64,000 nt of DNA from Candidatus Latescibacterota bacterium (GCA_965116875.1 OZ220733.1:32001-96000), one strand, 5' to 3'. Shown: positions 2,594 to 15,175, counted from the stretch's first letter. Translations and numbers: made by a program. The notes: generated from the sequence alone by a model not told the origin.

Positions 2594-3241
2594 TTACAGC
2601 AGATAGAGAATCGGGAACAGGAAGATCCAGACCAGATCCACGAAGTGCCAGTAGAGTCCGGCGCACTCGATCCGGTTGGCGAATTGCTCGGGCGCCGTAT
2701 GCCAGAGCTTGCTTCCGGGGAAGAGCAGGTAGAGATTCACCACGATGCCGCCGATCACGTGCAAACCGTGCAGGCCGGTCATCGTAAAGTACGTTGCGTA
2801 AAACGTACTCGTGGACGGATAGATACCAAGATGAAACTTGTGGGTATATTCGAAATACTTCACAACAAGGAACACGAACGCCAGCAATACCGTCAGGCCC
2901 AGATAGAGCTTGAACCTTCCGAAATTGTCCAGTTTCAGGGATGCCCAGGCCATAACCATCGTCACACTGGAGGCGATGAGCACGAATGTATTCAACGTGG
3001 CCAGCGGTACGTTCAGCAACTCCGAGCCGTGAGGCCAGGTTGGCGCCCCCACCCTGAGCAGGACCAGCGTTGAGAACAGCGCGCCGAACAGCATGACCTC
3101 GGAGGCCAGGAACAACCAGATCCCGAACTTCCCGTTATACACCCCCGTTATCGGATGCGGTTCCACCGTGTGGGGAATTTCTTCAACGGACACCGTCTGT
3201 CTCCTTTGCGTTTGTGGCGGTCGAACCAGGCGGTTCCACAA
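2594..3241 (-). CDS. ctaE: Cytochrome c oxidase subunit III (short form)
   Basis: WLFLASEVMLF, TGLHGLHV, YWHFVDLVW motifs. True start may be slightly downstream. Confidence 0.93.
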   Translation of the reverse strand: MWNRLVRPPQTQRRQTVSVEEIPHTVEPHPITGVYNGKFGIWLFLASEVMLFGALFSTLVLLRVGAPTWPHGSELLNVPLATLNTFVLIASSVTMVMAWASLKLDNFGRFKLYLGLTVLLAFVFLVVKYFEYTHKFHLGIYPSTSTFYATYFTMTGLHGLHVIGGIVVNLYLLFPGSKLWHTAPEQFANRIECAGLYWHFVDLVWIFLFPILYLL

Positions 3242-3260: not shown

Positions 3261-5057
3261 CTAGTCGTCGTCTGCGGAGGTGGGCGCCGGCTCAGGTTCC
3301 GGCCGGGCCGCCTGCCCGTTCTCAGACGCGTGCTGCGGCGTGAAATCGCTCGACGCGCCGGGCACACTGTATTCGTAAGGCCCCCGGTATACTCTGGGCG
3401 TCACCGCGAAATTCCCGTGCGGCGGGGGCGTGGGTGTCGCCCATTCGAGCGTGGTGGCCTGCCATGGATTGTCCGACTCCACCTTCCTGCCCTTCCTGAT
3501 ACTGATAAAGAAGTTGATGATGAAGAAAATCTGCGCCAGCCCCAGCAGCCATGCAGACCAGGAACTCATCGACGTCAGGCCCTGCACCTGCGCCCCGTAA
3601 GCGTACTGCGTCTGGTCGTACAGACGCCTGGAAACCCCCGCCATACCCACGAACAACATCGGCATGAACACACCGTTCATGAAAATCAGGCTGCTCCAGA
3701 AGTGCAGCTTGCCCAACGCATCGTTCATCATGCGTCCCGTGACCTTGGGGAACCAGTAGTAGATCCCGGCGAACAGTGCGAAAATCGTGCCCGGCGCCAC
3801 CACATAGTGGAAGTGGCCGATCACGTAATAGGTATCGTGCAGATGCAGGTCCGCGGCCGTGAGGCCCAGCGGCAGCCCTGTCAACCCGCCGATGGCGAAC
3901 ATGGGAATGAACGCCAGGCAGAACAGCATGGGTACCGTAAACCGGATGGACCCGCCGTGGAGGCTCAACGCGAGCGCCGTCAGGATAATAACCGACGGGA
4001 TGGAGATGATCATGGTCGTGGCCTGGAAGAAGGTACTGATTGTCGTGCCCATTCCGGTCATGAACATGTGGTGCGCCCAGACGATAAACGACATGAACCC
4101 GAGAAAGATAATCGAGTAGACCAGCGTGCGATACCCCCACAGCGGCCGGCGCGTGTTGTTGGCCACGATCTCGCCGACAATGCCGATTGCCGGAAGAATC
4201 AGCACGTAGACTTCCGGATGCGCGAGAAACCAGAACAGATGCTGCCACAACAGCGGGCTGCCGCCGCCGCTCACCTCCAGCGGCTGTCCTGTTACGACCA
4301 GTCCGCTCGGCATGAAAAAGCTGGTACCCGCGATCCGATCCATAAGCTGCATGACGCCGGCGGCTTCGAGCGGCGGAAACGCCAGCAGCAGCAGAAACGC
4401 CGTCACGAACTGCGCCCACACGAAAAAGGGCAGCCGGAAAAACGAAAGCCCTTCGGCCCTCATCTGCACCGTAGTTACGATGAAATTCACCGAACCCAGC
4501 AGAGAAGACGTGATCAGGGCGACCATGCCCCACAGCCACCATGTCTGCCCCGTCGGCGCGATATTGGCCAGAGGCGGATAGGACGTCCAGCCGGACTGCG
4601 CCGCGCCTTCGGGCACGAAAAAGCTGGCCAGCATAATGATTCCGCCCACGACGAACACCCAGTAACTGGCCATATTCAGCTTCGGAAACGCCATGTCCGG
4701 CGCGCCGATCTGCAGTGGCAGCACGTAGTTTCCAAATCCGCCTACCGCCAGCGGTACCACACCCATAAAGACCATGATTGTGCCGTGCATCGCGCCCAGC
4801 TGATTGTAGAACTCGGGAACCATGATGCCTTCCGGCATGTTGATCTCGCCGAACAAACCCCCGATCCACGGCATCGGCTGTCCCGGATAGGCCAGTTGCC
4901 ACCGCATCATCATCATCAGGCAAAAGCCGAAGAACAGGAAAAACAGGGCCGTTACCGCATACTGGATCCCGATGACCTTGTGATCGGTTGAGAATACGTA
5001 CTTCTGCCAGAACGGCAACTCGTGGTGTCCGTGGTCACCATGTTCGTGCTCAGCCAT
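3261..5057 (-). CDS. ctaD: Heme-copper oxidase subunit I, A family (A1-type HPEVY)
   Basis: TDHKVIG, MHGTIM, PDMAFP, WFLAHPEVY, WAHH and GHFHY motifs. Confidence 0.96.
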   Translation of the reverse strand: MAEHEHGDHGHHELPFWQKYVFSTDHKVIGIQYAVTALFFLFFGFCLMMMMRWQLAYPGQPMPWIGGLFGEINMPEGIMVPEFYNQLGAMHGTIMVFMGVVPLAVGGFGNYVLPLQIGAPDMAFPKLNMASYWVFVVGGIIMLASFFVPEGAAQSGWTSYPPLANIAPTGQTWWLWGMVALITSSLLGSVNFIVTTVQMRAEGLSFFRLPFFVWAQFVTAFLLLLAFPPLEAAGVMQLMDRIAGTSFFMPSGLVVTGQPLEVSGGGSPLLWQHLFWFLAHPEVYVLILPAIGIVGEIVANNTRRPLWGYRTLVYSIIFLGFMSFIVWAHHMFMTGMGTTISTFFQATTMIISIPSVIILTALALSLHGGSIRFTVPMLFCLAFIPMFAIGGLTGLPLGLTAADLHLHDTYYVIGHFHYVVAPGTIFALFAGIYYWFPKVTGRMMNDALGKLHFWSSLIFMNGVFMPMLFVGMAGVSRRLYDQTQYAYGAQVQGLTSMSSWSAWLLGLAQIFFIINFFISIRKGRKVESDNPWQATTLEWATPTPPPHGNFAVTPRVYRGPYEYSVPGASSDFTPQHASENGQAARPEPEPAPTSADDD

Positions 5058-5069
5058 AAAAGGGACTCC

Positions 5070-5840
5070 TTAGAAGGAAAAATCATCTTCTTCGGCGGCT
5101 GCGCCGGACTGCTCGTCGAACCAGGCCTGAAAGGCCTCTTCCGACTCAACCGTCAACTGCCCGCGCATGCGATAGTGACCCAGACCGCACAACTGGGCGC
5201 AGGCAATGTCGAATGTTCCTGCCCTGGTTGCCTCGAACCAGATCCGGATATCCTGTCCGGGAATCGCATCCTGCGTCAGGCGCATCACGGGGATCTTGAA
5301 ACTGTGAATGACGTCTTTCGACGAAATGTGCGCGATGACAGGCTTGTCCTTCACAATATGCAGGTTGTTGATGGAATTGAAATCGTCGTTGCCGTCGGGA
5401 TCGTCGGGGTCCAGTCCCAGCAGATTATCGGCGCTGACAAACACGGGCGCCGTCCGTCCGAATTTCCCGTCTTTCCCCGAGTAGTGGATATTCCAGGCGA
5501 ACTGTTCCGGTACCACCCGCACCACGAGCGCCTCGGATTCCTCCGGAAACGCGTGTTTGAAATCCGCCCAGAGCGGCATGGAAAGCCCCAGAAGCAGCAC
5601 GGCCTCGACGACAATCACGCCGTACTCCACGTACTTGGCGATTTTGCCCTTTATGGGGGCGTAGGTCGCGTCGGGGTTTGCCCTCCTCCGGTAGCGGACA
5701 AGGCAGTAGACGAAGAAGACGCCCCAACCCAGAAACAACGCGATCATGAACACGTGCAGCCAATTGATCAGCCAATCCACGGTTGCGCCGTGGGTTGAGA
5801 TGTCAATTGGCAGCCAGTAACCGTACACCTTTTCTTGCAT
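5070..5840 (-). CDS. ctaC: Cytochrome c oxidase subunit II (CuA)
   Basis: Two TM helices; DVIHS and CAQLCGLGHYRM CuA ligands; no fused cytochrome c. Confidence 0.94.
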   Translation of the reverse strand: MQEKVYGYWLPIDISTHGATVDWLINWLHVFMIALFLGWGVFFVYCLVRYRRRANPDATYAPIKGKIAKYVEYGVIVVEAVLLLGLSMPLWADFKHAFPEESEALVVRVVPEQFAWNIHYSGKDGKFGRTAPVFVSADNLLGLDPDDPDGNDDFNSINNLHIVKDKPVIAHISSKDVIHSFKIPVMRLTQDAIPGQDIRIWFEATRAGTFDIACAQLCGLGHYRMRGQLTVESEEAFQAWFDEQSGAAAEEDDFSF

Positions 5841-5859
5841 TCGGGACCCCTCCCCTTTT

Positions 5860-5958
5860 CAGCCCGCTGAAAAAGTCCATCCGGGCTACGGCCGGCCCTT
5901 GCGGTCGAAAACCTGCGTTGCTCGGTCTCGCCTGCAGAGCAACTTTTCCAACGGACTG
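5860..5958. mobile_element. MITE family A, internally deleted copy (99 bp)
   Basis: Ends CAGCCCGCTGAAAAAGTCC ... GCAACTTTTCCAACGGACTG form imperfect terminal inverted repeats. Colinear with the reverse complement of 53491-53673 minus an internal segment. Confidence 0.8.
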
Positions 5959-6020
5959 CAATTTTCGCGGGGCGGACCCGAAATCCCGCCTCGCATGGTC
6001 AATCCTGAGGATTGCGCCTG

Positions 6021-6764
6021 CTACTTCTTTCTCGGCTTGATCTTGAACGTGAAGTCCAGGGTCATGGACTCGCCGTCGGCGACCGTGACTTCCTGCGTCA
6101 TCGTGCCCAGCCGCGCACTTTCGTGCCACGCCTCGATCGTGTACGTGCCCGCCGGCAGCCCCGCGATCTCAAATTTGCCGCCTTCCCCGCTGACGGCGAA
6201 GAACGGGTGATCCATCACGCCGATATAGGATTGCATCCAGGGATGCACGTCGCACTTGACCGGTACCATCACCTCCGACTTCGCGAACGAAATCGTGGTC
6301 TTCTTCATGAACTTCGGCATCGCTTTGTTGATTTCGGCGGAGTTCTGCGGCTTCGGGTGGATATTGTGGAGCGTCCCGTCGCTGTTGAGCACCGTGATCG
6401 GCTGCCCTGCCCTGACGCCCATAACGTGCGGAACGTAAATGCACCCCTGCTGGTCCAGAACGGCGGGTTCGGAGGGCGCGTCGAACTTCCTGCCCTCCAG
6501 GCCCTTCTTGACGTAGACGAACACGTTGTGCAGGCCCCCGTCGTCTTCAACCACCACGACCTCGCTCAACGCCGGACCGCTCGTGTGTTTTCCGGCACAT
6601 ACGGGGTCGGCCGCCATCTGAATCTTCTTCCGCCCCGGTTTCTTTCCGCCCGGCAGTTCCAGCTTGACGGTGCCGGTAACCGTACCACCGGCCACCGCGT
6701 CTCCGGACGCAAAACTGGCGAAACTCAGGGCCATGAATGCTGCGATCAAACCGCGTCGTTTCAT
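6021..6764 (-). CDS. Secreted cupredoxin-like / carboxypeptidase-regulatory-like domain protein
   Basis: Signal peptide; LDQQGCIYVPHV, NSDGTLHNIH and KCDVHPWM motifs; C-terminal LPAGTYTIEAWHE beta-sandwich. Confidence 0.75.
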   Translation of the reverse strand: MKRRGLIAAFMALSFASFASGDAVAGGTVTGTVKLELPGGKKPGRKKIQMAADPVCAGKHTSGPALSEVVVVEDDGGLHNVFVYVKKGLEGRKFDAPSEPAVLDQQGCIYVPHVMGVRAGQPITVLNSDGTLHNIHPKPQNSAEINKAMPKFMKKTTISFAKSEVMVPVKCDVHPWMQSYIGVMDHPFFAVSGEGGKFEIAGLPAGTYTIEAWHESARLGTMTQEVTVADGESMTLDFTFKIKPRKK

Positions 6765-12029: not shown

Positions 12030-12977
12030 TCAGATCCGCAAAAAGGACTCCGGGTTGTCCCAGTGCCCTTTCTCGTACTGGAATTTCCGTGTCTTGTCCA
12101 CCAGTACCTGCCCGTCTTCGGCCAGGACGATGCGCGCCCTTTCCAGCGGACGTGGCGCGGGACCCTCGAAATTGATGCCAGACATATAAAAGCCGCTGCC
12201 GTGACACGGACATTTGAATTTCTGTTCGTTACCCAGCCAGTTGGGCGTACAACCCAGATGCGTGCAGACCGAAATGAGCGCGAACATGTCCTGTGTGGAC
12301 TTGACGATCCAGACGCTGAACTTGTCTTTCCACCGTTCGTCCACGCCCAGGTCGTAGTCTTCCGCAAACCCGATCTTGAAAGACTGAGGGGGCTCGAACA
12401 GCACATTCGGAAACAGAAAACGCCCGAATCCCAGGAGACCCGCCGCTGACGCGGCCGCAAAAGACGCCCAGGCCAGTGTCAGCCAGGTAAAAAACCCGCG
12501 GCGGGTGGTCATGCCGCCCTCGGCGACGGCTTGCGTCCGTTCCGGCCCGGGGCGGATTGCGGGCGGGGCCGGAGACGTCTGAACGATTACGCGCTCCGCG
12601 GCCGGCTCGTCGGTTTTCTGCGTCAACGCGCGAGCCGCGGCGGCCCGTTCCGCGGTGGACGCGGCCTTTTTGGCCGGCGCGGCGGACGGCGCCGATTTGC
12701 CGCCCCCGCGCGCCTTGCGCATCAATTCGGCCTTCGCCTTGGCGCGGGCGACGCGGTCCTGAATCTCGTCCAGGGACGAGAGATCCACTTCGGCGGCCCC
12801 GGAACCGTCTCCCGATTCCTCAGGGGCGCCCGCGGAAGCTCCGCCGGCCGGCGCCGCCGGGGCTTCACCCGCTGCAGCCTCACGGGCCTTTCGCAACGCC
12901 TCTGCTTTGGCCTTTGCCCTGGCTACCCGATCAGGGATTTCGTCAAATTCCGAAAGATCGATCTTCTCTTCCGACAT
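12030..12977 (-). CDS. Rieske [2Fe-2S] subunit with long repeat-bearing N-terminal extension
   Basis: CTHLGC and CPCHGS boxes, GPAPRPL, internal Tat anchor TRRGFF followed by a TM helix. Confidence 0.93.
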   Translation of the reverse strand: MSEEKIDLSEFDEIPDRVARAKAKAEALRKAREAAAGEAPAAPAGGASAGAPEESGDGSGAAEVDLSSLDEIQDRVARAKAKAELMRKARGGGKSAPSAAPAKKAASTAERAAAARALTQKTDEPAAERVIVQTSPAPPAIRPGPERTQAVAEGGMTTRRGFFTWLTLAWASFAAASAAGLLGFGRFLFPNVLFEPPQSFKIGFAEDYDLGVDERWKDKFSVWIVKSTQDMFALISVCTHLGCTPNWLGNEQKFKCPCHGSGFYMSGINFEGPAPRPLERARIVLAEDGQVLVDKTRKFQYEKGHWDNPESFLRI

Positions 12978-13100
12978 GGCATACCCCGGAAACCGGCCTG
13001 GCGGTCTCGGATCGGAAATTTGTCAGCTATGGATAATATGCGATATAAGTTAAAAAAATACCGGAAATTGCATCATTTACGACGCGGAAGACACCGCGCC

Positions 13101-13129
13101 AATATATCCAAACCACCCCGGAATGTCAA
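13101..13129 (-). promoter_or_regulatory. Sigma-70 promoter of the respiratory operon
   Basis: TTGACA-17 bp-TATATT on the - strand, upstream of the Rieske gene. Confidence 0.7.
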
Positions 13130-13235
13130 GCGGGATTTTCTCCAGATTCGCTTCTTCCGGATCCAAGGAAAAAGGGACCCGAAAAGCGCCCGATCGGGCC
13201 GGATCCCCCATTGAAATTCCGTCGATTCCTGCCGT

Positions 13236-14144
13236 TCATTTCTCTTCCCAGCCATTCAGCACTTCAATCGCCGCCTGTCGGACCCGCAGGTCCGGGTCCT
13301 GATTGCGCAGCCTCTGCAGCGAGGGGGCCAGCGACGCCGCGTTGAGAATACCCACCGCCCTGATCGCTTCGACCAGGATATTCCGCCTCCCCTCTCCGCT
13401 TATCCGGTCGAACCCTTCGAGGTATCCGGGGCTCAGTATCTCTCCCAGCACCTCCAGGCCCGCGCTGTTTCCCGCTCCGGCCAATTGCAGGGCGGCGTTC
13501 CAGCGAACATCGGGCGCACGGTCGTGAAGCGCTCGCTCCAGCGCGGGTGGCGCCCGGGGATCGTCCAGTCCGCCAAGGGCGTATACTGCGGCCTTGCGCA
13601 ATCCCGCATCGTCGTTCGACGCGATCCGGATCAGGTGCGGCACGGCGTCCGGGTTATCCTGCGCCCGGAGCGAAAACATCGCATTGATCCGTGTTTCGTC
13701 GTCGGGGTCGTCCAGCGCGGCGATCAGAACGCCGACGAGTTCGGGATCCCGTACCCTTCCCATGGCCGCGGCCAGAAAGCGCCTGACGCGAGGGTCGTCC
13801 GAACGGGAAGCCTCGAACACGCGGATCAACTCTCCAACGAACCTGCGGCCAATCCGTCCTTCGCGCTGCTCCTGGTCCAGCACGGTGGCCAGTTCGTACG
13901 CGGCCTGCCACCTGCTGTTGATCCCGCCCACCCGAATCGTATTGAGATAGTCCTCCGCCGTTTTTCGCTCGACCGTCAACAAACCCAATCCCAGATAGAT
14001 CGCGAGCCCGACCAGAATGATCGCCACGGGAAAAATGACGAACTGCGAGACCAGTCTCGCCCGCGAGACGTCCGCGTCCGAAACCGGGGCGGTGGCGTCT
14101 TCGGCGATTTTTCTGAGTTCCTCATCGGGAGTCGGTTGGTCCAT
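13236..14144 (-). CDS. Membrane-anchored HEAT-repeat protein
   Basis: N-terminal TM helix, then repeats such as DDPRVRRFLAAAMG, DDAGLRKAAVYALG, APDVRWNAALQL, DPDLRVRQAA. Confidence 0.85.
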   Translation of the reverse strand: MDQPTPDEELRKIAEDATAPVSDADVSRARLVSQFVIFPVAIILVGLAIYLGLGLLTVERKTAEDYLNTIRVGGINSRWQAAYELATVLDQEQREGRIGRRFVGELIRVFEASRSDDPRVRRFLAAAMGRVRDPELVGVLIAALDDPDDETRINAMFSLRAQDNPDAVPHLIRIASNDDAGLRKAAVYALGGLDDPRAPPALERALHDRAPDVRWNAALQLAGAGNSAGLEVLGEILSPGYLEGFDRISGEGRRNILVEAIRAVGILNAASLAPSLQRLRNQDPDLRVRQAAIEVLNGWEEK

Positions 14145-14212
14145 GCAACAACCTCTGTCTCGAAAAATGACTGATGTTTCTCTTCAGGCCAATCCGAAAG
14201 TACACGAGGTCC

Positions 14213-14242
14213 AATATAACCAGAGGCCGCACACGCTGTCAA
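14213..14242 (-). promoter_or_regulatory. Putative sigma-70 promoter for the HEAT gene
   Basis: TTGACA-18 bp-TATATT on the - strand. Confidence 0.5.
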
Positions 14243-14282
14243 GATCGGTGTCCCGTCACGAAGTTTGCTCCGGCCCGGCCTT

Positions 14283-14345
14283 CCGCCTTGACCGCCGCTT
14301 TTTCGCTCGCGCCCGGGAACTCACCGGTAATTTTAAAACAACCTC
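14283..14345. repeat. MITE family B right-end fragment
   Basis: Near-identical to 45600-45662 (CGCCTTGACCGCC...GGGAACTCACCGGTAATTTTAAAACAACCTC), also followed by TTA. Confidence 0.75.
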
Positions 14346-14352
14346 TTACTCC

Positions 14353-14381
14353 TTGACAACCCGCGGGAAAGACCTTATTTT
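14353..14381 (+). promoter_or_regulatory. Putative sigma-70 promoter for the ferredoxin gene
   Basis: TTGACA-17 bp-TATTTT. Confidence 0.5.
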
Positions 14382-14440
14382 AGCCCTGAATCATCACGCG
14401 AAACGCAAGCACATAGCGCACCACAGGAGATCGCGGCACA

Positions 14441-15175
14441 ATGAACGTCGACCTTACCCAGTTCGATCATATTTCCGATCGCGTGGCGCGGGCCAGGGCC
14501 AAGGCCGAGGCCATGCGGAAAGCCAAAGAAGGCGCCGGCGACGCCGATGAGGCCGCGCCCGATGCTGCCGGCGCGGAGCTGGAAGCCGCCGCCGCTCCCG
14601 TTGAAGTCGAAGCGGAGCCGGCCGGCCTGACCATACTGGAGTTCAGGCCCGGAATCCATTTCAAGTTGAACGGACGGGCCGGGCGCACAGTGGGCATCCG
14701 TTACGACATGGTCAGTTTCGTCTACGACGACGACCCCGACCAGCTCGTGACCGCGGACCGTTATCGCCTCAGCCACGCCCACGCCGAGGGCACGCTGGAA
14801 TTCGCCCCGAAGTCAGAGGTCTACCGTCCGGAGCGCGTCTCGAGAAAAGAACGCGTCGATTACCACGAACACCTCTGGCTGGAGTCCCGCTCCGGCATGA
14901 CGGCCAAGAAGAAACGGCCGCGGCATATCGCCATTATCAATCCGGACTATTGCACCGGCTGCAATGCATGCATCGAAGTCTGCCCGACGGACTGCATCGA
15001 GGAAGTCGACGTGGCCGACGCGGGGCTGGACGGTATCGGCACGTTCTGCGAAGTCCGCCTGGAAGACTGTATCGGCTGCATTCAATGCGTGCATATCTGC
15101 CCGTGGGAAGCCATCGAAATGGTGGATACCCAGCAGGTTGAAGAGGCATACGGTATCCCCGCAGGGACGTTGTAG
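14441..15175 (+). CDS. 2x[4Fe-4S] dicluster ferredoxin-domain protein with N-terminal extension
   Basis: CTGCNACIEVCP and CIGCIQCVHICP motifs; N-terminal motif shared with the Rieske protein. Confidence 0.88.
   Translation: MNVDLTQFDHISDRVARARAKAEAMRKAKEGAGDADEAAPDAAGAELEAAAAPVEVEAEPAGLTILEFRPGIHFKLNGRAGRTVGIRYDMVSFVYDDDPDQLVTADRYRLSHAHAEGTLEFAPKSEVYRPERVSRKERVDYHEHLWLESRSGMTAKKKRPRHIAIINPDYCTGCNACIEVCPTDCIEEVDVADAGLDGIGTFCEVRLEDCIGCIQCVHICPWEAIEMVDTQQVEEAYGIPAGTL

Follow-up and report, generated by a model that had tools for sequence, protein, structure and literature searches.

A conserved 25-residue tag on a Rieske protein and its neighbouring dicluster protein in Candidatus Latescibacterota, a candidate docking helix of a b6-type respiratory complex

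Direct input of electrons from ferredoxin into the cytochrome b6f complex has long been proposed, and two questions about b6f-type complexes are still open: how low-potential carriers gain access on the cytoplasmic (n) side, and what purpose haem ci serves. The Rieske/cytochrome b complexes of anammox bacteria, encoded in Kuenenia stuttgartiensis by Kustd1480-1485 and Kuste4569-4574, have been proposed to reduce NAD(P)+, as described in PMC12954380. Both questions are touched by a 64,000-nucleotide stretch of DNA from a Candidatus Latescibacterota bacterium (GCA_965116875.1 OZ220733.1:32001-96000), which was analysed at its full length and is called the window below. In the window, a gene for a Rieske [2Fe-2S] subunit and a divergently transcribed gene for a protein with a 2x[4Fe-4S] domain, hereafter the dicluster protein, share a 25-residue motif, the tag. 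An earlier note, made from the sequence alone, regarded the tag as a helical oligomerisation or docking module that either tethers a soluble ferredoxin to the Rieske/b complex or recruits both proteins to a common partner. Comparison of sequences supports the docking reading in part: the tag is a selected, helix-forming module found on both genes together, and it may be a docking helix on a tether by which the dicluster protein is attached to the Rieske/b complex, a reading to which we give a probability of roughly 45%.

The tag has the consensus DLSxFDxIxDRVARAKAKAEAxRKA and occurs twice in the Rieske protein and once at the N-terminus of the dicluster protein, with coordinates and sequences exactly as first reported (Table 1). 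A hidden Markov model (HMM) of these three copies was run against the 98,486 open frames of 30 or more amino acids (aa) in all six reading frames of the source genome, a single contig of 5,453,092 bases. The HMM matches the Rieske open reading frame (ORF) with an expectation value (E) of 5e-32 and two domains, and the dicluster ORF with E 1.9e-16. No further tag-bearing ORF was found among these frames of the 5.45 Mb genome, the next match having E = 1, and the restriction to two proteins that had been noted for the window therefore extends to the whole genome. The three copies have 47-51 of 75 bases in common, as against 18-20 of 25 residues, and 12-14 of the 25 codons differ only synonymously, which shows that the copies are old and under selection at the protein level. 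A recent DNA repeat or chance as the origin of the tag is ruled out by the same pattern of synonymous codons. The linkers between copies are rich in Ala, Gly, Pro and Glu, and their length and sequence vary among orthologues.

Residues preceding a twin-arginine translocation (Tat) anchor remain cytoplasmic, and the two Rieske copies lie in such a cytoplasmic N-terminal extension of about 155 aa. In an alignment of 23 Rieske sequences, R159, R160 and G161 are invariant and are followed by a hydrophobic stretch, in agreement with the length of the extension given in the earlier note. A second conserved stretch, at Rieske residues about 95-155 (positions 12420-12700, minus strand), lies between copy 2 and the Tat motif; it consists of PAKKAPAKK, then AASTADRAAAARALT, then VIVQTSPAPPAIRPGP, and is kept in most orthologues.

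Codon differences between the window, taken as the reference, and the orthologues at 28 loci, which come from related and hence not independent genomes, number 284 synonymous and 72 non-synonymous for tag copy 1, 157 and 23 for copy 2, and 240 and 104 for the tag of the dicluster protein. The flanking linkers drift freely in the alignments and codon counts, whereas the tag does not. Among 68 distinct copies, a set biased toward conserved ones by having been gathered with the HMM, D1, D10, R11, R14, A17, K18 and A25 never vary, and free variation is restricted to positions 4, 7, 9, 22 and 24. The conserved positions are spread over every face of the helix, which fits a buried helix. Helix positions 10-25 of the consensus contain six basic and two acidic residues and have a hydrophobic moment of 0.12 and a mean hydrophobicity of -0.52 on the Eisenberg scale, and the net charge of the whole 25-mer is +1. 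In an AlphaFold2 model of the dicluster protein built from 21 sequences, the tag helix is predicted at residues 14-31, with a predicted local distance difference test (pLDDT) score of about 75, and is followed by a disordered linker. The helical module of the earlier note is thus borne out by the predicted helix and by the strong synonymous excess. A 34-column tag profile matches only 22 of 1,835,955,588 representative proteins at E<=1e-3, which excludes scattered occurrence as low-complexity sequence, and the orthologues keep both the tag and the early start, which excludes tagless orthologues and later starts. The tag is a real, selected, helix-forming module and not low complexity.

Two word-index searches on the N-terminal regions returned 5 and 59 proteins, with P0003 in both, and hence 63 distinct proteins, every one of which carries the tag. 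Of these, 28 are Rieske proteins (one or two copies each), 23 are dicluster proteins (a single copy each), 10 form a third class without a Pfam family (class 3), and 2 are Rieske-like proteins missed by the Rieske pattern of the script, one a fragment of 196 aa (P0021) and the other full-length at 331 aa (P0024). Inspection covered 17 of the 22 library matches, the remaining five (P0066, P0067, P0070, P0073 and P0078) being fragments of 44-73 aa; 16 of the 17 are Rieske, dicluster or class 3 proteins or their fragments, and the other is a NuoI-like protein, P0081 (E 2.1e-4). The tag-bearing proteins all belong to respiratory redox chains, except one uncharacterised membrane protein, and the tag is, with that exception, confined to redox proteins, a point that the earlier note had proposed as a test. 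No curated family covers residues 1-40 in Pfam (E up to 0.01) or NCBIfam, and no Pfam model at E up to 1 lies over the tag in class 3 proteins or in P0081. A PDB sequence search with the tag profile gave a best E of 1.4, and an ESM Atlas search with residues 1-130 gave nothing usable. A description of the tag was not found among the open-access papers listed by the literature searches; in PMC5449189, Latescibacteria are named only in a polyferredoxin table.

The tag is present in 30 of 168 Latescibacterota genomes: in all 21 genomes of family f1 together with the window's own genome, in 6 of 31 genomes of family f2 and in 2 of 3 of family f3, and in none of the 112 genomes of eleven other families. 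The copies number two or three in each tagged genome and are without exception divided between the two divergent genes of a single locus, which also encodes the b6-type Rieske/b complex, a multihaem cytochrome c, a HEAT-repeat protein and an aa3 oxidase. A cytochrome b6 at least 86% identical to that of the window is found in exactly these 30 genomes, the next best being 77% identical. The trio of Rieske, HEAT and dicluster genes, the synteny of which the earlier note had suggested checking, is kept in all 28 fetched loci, and 26 of them also have the genes for b6, subunit IV and the multihaem cytochrome, one of the two exceptions being a 4.2 kb contig. The Rieske protein carries two tag copies in 18 of the 28 loci and one, copy 2 being absent, in 9. 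One tag on the Rieske protein is accompanied by one on the dicluster protein in 8 loci, two tag matches are seen in 8 of the 30 genomes, and L038 combines a single Rieske tag with two tags on its class 3 protein. A fixed total of three copies per locus (two plus one or one plus two) was rejected because of the 8 one-plus-one loci. In L024, the Rieske tag lies in a frame (5065-5469, minus strand) that is separate from and overlaps the frame of the Rieske domain (4472-5239, minus strand), probably through a frameshift or an assembly error.

The comparison also took in four b6-type clusters that are more distant, namely those of G048, G071 and G050 and the second cluster of G079. The Rieske protein is untagged in all three in which it was detected (G048, G071 and the second cluster of G079), and no Rieske protein was detected in G050 at E 1e-4. 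An orthologue of the tagged dicluster protein is absent genome-wide from G048, G071, G050 and G049, and genus g6 has no orthologue of either tagged protein. G048 retains HEAT at the end of the operon although the tag and the dicluster orthologue are absent, G071 has a short Rieske protein and no HEAT gene within its 20 kb locus, and the second G079 cluster has a short Rieske protein and an untagged dicluster gene of 86 aa. The Rieske tag thus goes with the tagged partner and not with HEAT. In agreement with the earlier note, the sharing of the tag by the Rieske protein and the ferredoxin holds in orthologues; Rieske orthologues without the divergent neighbour are also without the tag. The untagged 2x[4Fe-4S] gene of G079 lies between the subunit IV and multihaem genes of this paralogous cluster (L080:11397-11654, plus strand), so that a small dicluster protein accompanies such complexes in another form too. 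The orthologous Rieske protein of G048 (L077:10292-11515, minus strand), a member of another Latescibacterota family, is extended at its N-terminus by other sequence, in which a helical module of roughly 45 residues (AEQLRAAAEALGIEV...MKRVQEAL) is present twice and for which Pfam gives only faint hints of Ribosomal_S3_C (E 1.5e-4) and Rho_N (E 0.053), both under cut-off. This module was considered as a parallel tag system and rejected, since no further copy was found in G048 and none in three other genomes.

The divergent "ferredoxin" consists of the tag, a linker, a Tudor/SH3-like barrel and a PsaC/NuoI-like dicluster domain. The modelled barrel is composed of four strands, a helix and a strand and is homologous to that of the membrane-anchored class 3 proteins. 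Its best structural matches are CarD, the C-terminal Tudor domain of UvrD and other Tudor/KOW domains, with weak Z scores of 5-6.4, and values under 8 can reflect no more than a common arrangement. In the dicluster domain, C171, C174, C177 and C181 and C210, C213, C216 and C220 are invariant. This domain is generic: the models for NuoI (38.1 versus a cut-off of 215), RnfB (36.7 versus 68.7), PsaC (32.3 versus 130.65) and PorD all score under cut-off, and the nearest solved chains are the MvhB polyferredoxin and PsaC (E 2e-9 to 5e-9). By these scores the domain resembles NuoI, PsaC and RnfB and is a member of none of these families. In family f3 the gene is split. The f3 tag protein combines two tags with the barrel and, at its C-terminus, a membrane hairpin, and is without a cluster motif, whereas a separate small dicluster protein (open frames of 110-133 aa), which begins 76 bases after it, is without a tag; the f3 Rieske protein carries one tag. 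The split and the hairpin show that the tag-plus-barrel unit works at the membrane and that the dicluster domain can be a chain of its own, which an accessory subunit explains better than a free carrier does. The "soluble ferredoxin" of the earlier note thus gives way to a three-part protein that is more like an accessory subunit. The matches listed for the class 3 alignment are all Rieske or dicluster loci of Latescibacterota.

With the NuoI-like protein P0081 as starting point, 80 nuo loci were collected from Marinimicrobia (Neomarinimicrobiota/Fidelibacterota), many of them incomplete, and were screened with a pattern derived from the motif core. The core pattern was found in 36 of the 80 loci, on an N-terminal extension of NuoC (PF00329) in 25 and on the C-terminal tail of NuoI in 11, and never on both in one locus; a pattern match in L089 was spurious. 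The shared core is hydrophobic-x-x-hydrophobic-[ND]-x-I-x-D-[RK]-[VM]-x-R-x-x-A-K, followed by basic residues, and I11, D13, R14, R17 and K21 are invariant in an alignment of 18 Marinimicrobia rows with the three window copies. Comparison of 86 Latescibacterota with 40 Marinimicrobia copies by hhalign gives a probability of 97.6%, E 3e-12 and a score of 47.3 over 31 columns, as against at most 11.7 in 30 column-shuffled controls, the score being inflated by the choice of the Marinimicrobia rows with the core pattern. An HMM built from 36 NuoI repeats and no other sequences finds the window Rieske (E 2e-9) and dicluster (E 0.0016) proteins as the top two of the 98,486 frames, the third-best frame having E 0.74. 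The agreement outside the pattern and the reciprocal match make it likely that the Latescibacterota tag and the module of the Marinimicrobia NuoC and NuoI tails are related.

The NuoI repeat is about 64 residues long, is present in one to five copies and is opened by the tag-like helix; it is predicted to be a compact four-helix unit (AlphaFold2 pLDDT 93.6, predicted template modelling score 0.79). The NuoC and Latescibacterota forms go no further than helix 2. An HMM of the remaining half of the repeat (helices 3-4) has no match in the window genome (best E 7.9), and the window tag is directly followed by the variable linker instead. The NuoI repeat has no Pfam family, Foldseek found nothing for its fold at E<=0.001, and the wide VIA search gave generic small helical bundles with a best Z of 6.0 (PedB). 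A genome search with a joint profile places the module on NuoI alone in all 8 NuoI-type genomes, with a single copy in G170, and finds a second protein with two or three half-tags in 5 of 7 NuoC-type genomes. In G168 this second carrier (L174:1060-2256, minus strand) is 398 aa long, begins with a membrane helix and bears the half-tags in its C-terminal tail, and ORFs like it, with two or three degenerate half-tags, are found in G171, G175, G176 and G177. Since its match to SRPBCC/Polyketide_cyc2 is weak (E 0.013) and under cut-off, the label Polyketide_cyc2 is tentative. The 5 of 7 NuoC-type genomes and the 30 of 30 Latescibacterota genomes suggest a rule that bare half-tags are carried by at least two proteins, whereas whole repeats can stand alone.

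The Marinimicrobia nuo operons appear, from ORF order and sizes, to be without NuoEFG, with NuoD followed directly by NuoH. In this they match the non-canonical NADH dehydrogenase (NDH) of Marinimicrobia described in PMC6143742, for which flavodoxin is suggested as the donor. In L109 and L112 the NuoI tail bears flavodoxin instead of the repeat (PF00258, E 1.4e-43 and 2.9e-20), with two PF00258 domains in the former (3914-5962, plus strand) and one in the latter (3914-5134, plus strand). Such a fusion would give a complex I without the NADH module a covalently attached donor; no description of it was found among the open-access papers listed by the literature searches.

These observations lead to the favoured reading, in which the tag is a docking helix on a tether that joins the dicluster protein to the Rieske/b complex by the packing of half-modules. 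The tag would be made of a short turn (DLSxF), an N-cap, a basic Ala-rich helix of 16-18 residues and a floppy Ala/Pro/Gly/Glu linker, and would represent the first half of the small four-helix module that is whole on the Marinimicrobia NuoI tails. Latescibacterota would keep only this half-module, on two cytoplasm-facing proteins, with one half-module at the Rieske N-terminus ahead of the Tat anchor and the other at the N-terminus of the dicluster protein. Since helices 3 and 4 are absent, the tag needs a partner surface, and the rule that half-tags come in sets, the strict pairing of the Rieske and dicluster genes, which bear the tag together in all 30 tagged genomes, and the conservation on every face suggest that the half-modules of both proteins pack together, either directly or around one small adaptor. 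Such packing would retain the dicluster protein on the cytoplasmic face of the complex, close to haems bn and ci, and the Rieske/b complex would thereby gain a low-potential iron-sulfur port on the n side. We infer the helix-helix contact, the placement of the dicluster protein and any electron flow, which could run from a low-potential donor to quinone or could be an output as proposed for the anammox complexes.

Several points weigh against the packing of half-modules. Of the docking tether in the earlier note, the selected module and its co-occurrence on both genes are supported, and physical contact between the tagged proteins is a prediction. Complex prediction with Rieske residues 1-100 and dicluster residues 1-125, each with its own alignment, gave an ipSAE of 0.00 in both runs, made without controls, and this outcome is no answer and counts neither for nor against binding. 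Copies per locus vary between two and three, giving no simple stoichiometry. The NuoI helix packs on helices 3-4 of its own chain and not on another copy, so that the pairing of two first halves is an extrapolation. The presence of flavodoxin in place of the NuoI repeat in two loci points to recruitment of a motif-less carrier. Two of the seven NuoC-type genomes, which are metagenome-assembled genomes of 1.6-1.8 Mb and unknown completeness, have no second carrier. In addition, the kinship scores between the two motif sets are inflated by the selection of rows, and the dicluster part of the AlphaFold2 model is poor, with pLDDT about 30. A more specific form of the docking hypothesis is a long shot. 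In this form, the half-tags would pair in trans on the cytoplasmic face beside haem ci, and the barrel, the dicluster domain and the basic helices would make up a hard-wired port of low potential; the complex would then be a natural ferredoxin- or flavodoxin:quinone reductase form of b6f or, in reverse, a quinol-driven reducer of ferredoxin, and the same system would bring a donor or partner to Marinimicrobia complex I.

The main rival, which we consider rather unlikely, is that each tag binds, independently of the others, a common motif-less partner, the likeliest being flavodoxin or ferredoxin as a soluble, acidic carrier of low potential. The basic helices, on their long linkers, would raise the local amount of this carrier where electrons enter the dicluster protein, in a role like that of the basic patches of NdhV and NdhO at the ferredoxin site of cyanobacterial NDH-1. 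Recruitment to a common partner was the alternative named in the earlier note, and it is still a live one. Consistently, the Marinimicrobia module sits on NuoI or NuoC, at the donor side of a complex I without NuoEFG in its operon, for which flavodoxin has been suggested as the donor (PMC6143742), and flavodoxin domains replace the NuoI repeat in L109 and L112. The excess of basic over acidic residues in the helix (six to two) and the analogy to the SH3-like NdhS with NdhV and NdhO at the NDH-1 ferredoxin site, as described in PMC7021789, are also in keeping with carrier binding. Since none of the 8 NuoI-type genomes has a second tagged protein and G170 has only a single copy of the module, a motif-less partner or self-association is required there. 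However, conservation on all faces, including the acidic N-terminal half (D1, D6 and D10), exceeds what charge steering needs, the net charge of the 25-mer is only +1, and the binding of a carrier leaves unexplained why the Rieske protein is tagged whenever the dicluster protein is.

HEAT solenoids commonly bind helical peptides, and importin-beta wraps the importin-beta-binding helix. The membrane-anchored HEAT protein might likewise be a receptor whose solenoid wraps the helices of both proteins and scaffolds them on the complex. The position of the HEAT gene between the two tagged genes in all 28 loci is in keeping with this, but G048 keeps HEAT without the tag, without the dicluster orthologue and with a different N-terminal module on its Rieske protein, and we consider a HEAT receptor improbable. 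In 31 orthologue rows of the HEAT protein (L038 = L075), the positive-inside count is 2.0 Lys plus Arg for the N side and 1.7 for the C side, values that are compatible with either orientation in the membrane.

In eukaryotes, LYR motifs recruit the co-chaperone for Fe-S delivery. A comparable role of the tag as a signal for insertion of the Fe-S cofactor or for targeting, or as a hold-back before Tat export, would agree with the fact that most carriers are Fe-S proteins (Rieske, dicluster protein and NuoI). This role is nevertheless very improbable, since the f3 tags are on a protein without a cluster motif while the adjoining dicluster protein is untagged, NuoC, which binds no cluster, is tagged in 25 Marinimicrobia loci, the membrane protein with the weak SRPBCC match is tagged too, and the other Fe-S proteins of the genome are not. 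Finally, a lipid-binding amphipathic helix or a functionless linker of biased composition, which the Ala/Lys/Arg-rich sequence recalls as in many membrane-surface helices and linkers, deserves hardly any credence, because the moment and hydrophobicity are far from those of surface-seeking helices, the Rieske and class 3 proteins keep one to three copies although they are already membrane-anchored, and the tag, with its 22 library matches, does not drift as the linkers do.

The genes around the tagged pair form a respiratory chain (Table 1). On the minus strand, the order is Rieske, b6, subunit IV, multihaem cytochrome c, the 247-aa ORF, COX2, COX1, COX3 and CtaA, so that the bc-oxidase chain proposed in the earlier note is confirmed by the oxidase genes downstream. 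The HEAT gene lies upstream of the Rieske gene, between it and the divergent dicluster gene. The PetC/Rieske NCBIfam matches of the Rieske protein are under their cut-offs (66.4 versus 250 for the PetC model NF045928). Cytochrome b is split as in b6f, with PF00033 and PF00032 on separate ORFs, and the place of cytochrome f is taken by the multihaem cytochrome c. The cytochrome b6 matches solved cytochrome b6 chains with E 2.8e-41, and in the alignment the Cys of its YTWCMGG motif sits opposite Cys35 of FYCLGG in these chains, a residue that is the covalent ligand of haem ci/cn in b6f. The 247-aa ORF, between the multihaem cytochrome and COX2 genes, may encode a periplasmic accessory protein of the chain.

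Table 1. Positions of the tag copies, the tagged genes and the neighbouring respiratory genes, counted from the first nucleotide of the window
Feature	Position	Strand	Basis
Tag copy 1, Rieske residues 7-31, DLSEFDEIPDRVARAKAKAEALRKA	12885..12959	-	ORF translation, 3-copy HMM
Tag copy 2, Rieske residues 65-89, DLSSLDEIQDRVARAKAKAELMRKA	12711..12785	-	ORF translation, 3-copy HMM
Tag copy, dicluster protein residues 4-28, DLTQFDHISDRVARARAKAEAMRKA	14450..14524	+	ORF translation, 3-copy HMM
Rieske [2Fe-2S] subunit gene, 315 aa	12030..12977	-	ORF and PF00355 at residues 219-279
Twin-arginine motif TTRRGFF and membrane anchor, Rieske residues about 157-186	12420..12509	-	Alignment
Rieske cluster-binding domain, CTHLGC ... 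CPCHGS	12141..12323	-	PF00355, E 8.1e-08; invariant Cys/His columns
Accessory dicluster protein gene, 244 aa, divergent	14441..15175	+	ORF, Pfam, AlphaFold2 model
Small beta-barrel, Tudor/SH3-like, residues 61-122	14621..14806	+	AlphaFold2, pLDDT 78-91
2x[4Fe-4S] dicluster domain, two CxxCxxCxxxCP motifs	14906..15136	+	Fer4 families, residues 156-232
HEAT-repeat protein, 302 aa, one N-terminal membrane helix	13236..14144	-	PF13646, E 3.7e-39
Cytochrome b6-type subunit, 261 aa	11162..11947	-	PF00033
Enlarged subunit IV-like protein, 358 aa	10040..11116	-	PF00032; ExtQ/subunit IV models under cut-off
Large multihaem cytochrome c, 1029 aa	6874..9963	-	Cytochrome c families
ORF, 247 aa, weak CarboxypepD_reg match	6021..6764	-	E 1.3e-06, under cut-off
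aa3-type oxidase gene block COX2-COX1-COX3-CtaA	726..5840	-	Pfam
COX2	5070..5840	-	PF00116
COX1	3261..5057	-	PF00115
COX3	2594..3241	-	PF00510
Haem A synthase CtaA	726..1817	-	PF02628

The locus offers a compact natural case in which the haem ci cysteine is kept and the Rieske and dicluster proteins bear the same selected tag, and in the sister family f3 the tag-bearing half of the dicluster protein is itself membrane-anchored. The tag offers a means of isolating the complete assembly from a phylum that has not been cultured. The relationship of the tag to the NuoC and NuoI tails and the flavodoxin replacement suggest a mode of partner attachment that is shared in FCB-group bacteria. Should the tag turn out to be a tether confined to this lineage, it would still bring a new accessory subunit to the widespread multihaem b6-type complex, which is not known to have been purified.

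The anammox Rieske/b complexes are the closest system, likened here by architecture as described in PMC12954380. Like the window locus, they have a four-helix b with subunit IV and a multihaem cytochrome c replacing cytochrome f, and an extra Fe-S subunit of theirs, placed on the cytoplasmic side, is proposed to receive its electrons from the haems of the n side. This anammox subunit contains FAD and four [4/3Fe-4S] clusters and is a putative NAD(P) oxidoreductase, whereas the window encodes a 244-aa barrel-plus-dicluster protein; the tag shared by both partners and the linkage to an aa3 oxidase also set the window apart from the anammox complexes as described there. An accessory cytoplasmic Fe-S subunit on a b6-type complex is thus already known in kind, and the shared tag is new. 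The combination of a dicluster protein, an SH3-like barrel and basic elements is also found in cyanobacterial NDH-1 (NdhI, NdhS, NdhV and NdhO), as described in PMC7021789, and photosystem I (PsaC, PsaD and PsaE) has the same arrangement on its cytoplasmic or stromal face. The window dicluster domain matches PsaC chains at E 5e-9 to 1e-4, whereas for the barrel no sequence relationship to NdhS or PsaE was detected, and neither is among its 50 listed structure matches. The window protein differs from NDH-1 and photosystem I in having both domains in a single chain and in its proposed attachment to a Rieske/b6 complex, and the likeness to these ferredoxin sites is one of architecture only. The earlier note had loosely likened the tag to the RsxC/RnfC tails of enterobacteria, a likeness that does not hold up. 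E. coli RsxC also has repeated Ala/Lys/Arg-rich tail helices that face the cytoplasm on a ferredoxin-linked membrane complex, but it has only the six residues IARAKA in common with the tag and is without the N-terminal DLSxFDxIxDR half; the three motif HMMs score -2.8 to 1.0 bits on RsxC of E. coli K-12 (Z = 1), and no RnfC-type protein is among the 22 library matches. The closest sequence relatives of the tag are the Marinimicrobia NuoI and NuoC tails, which have no family name. They share with it the core I-x-D-R-V-x-R-x-K-A-K and the preceding short helix, and in both groups the tag is on floppy tails of cytoplasm-facing respiratory subunits and varies in copy number. The host complex is complex I in Marinimicrobia and Rieske/b in the window, and the helix is continued in Marinimicrobia NuoI by two more helices into a compact domain, of which the window form is only half.

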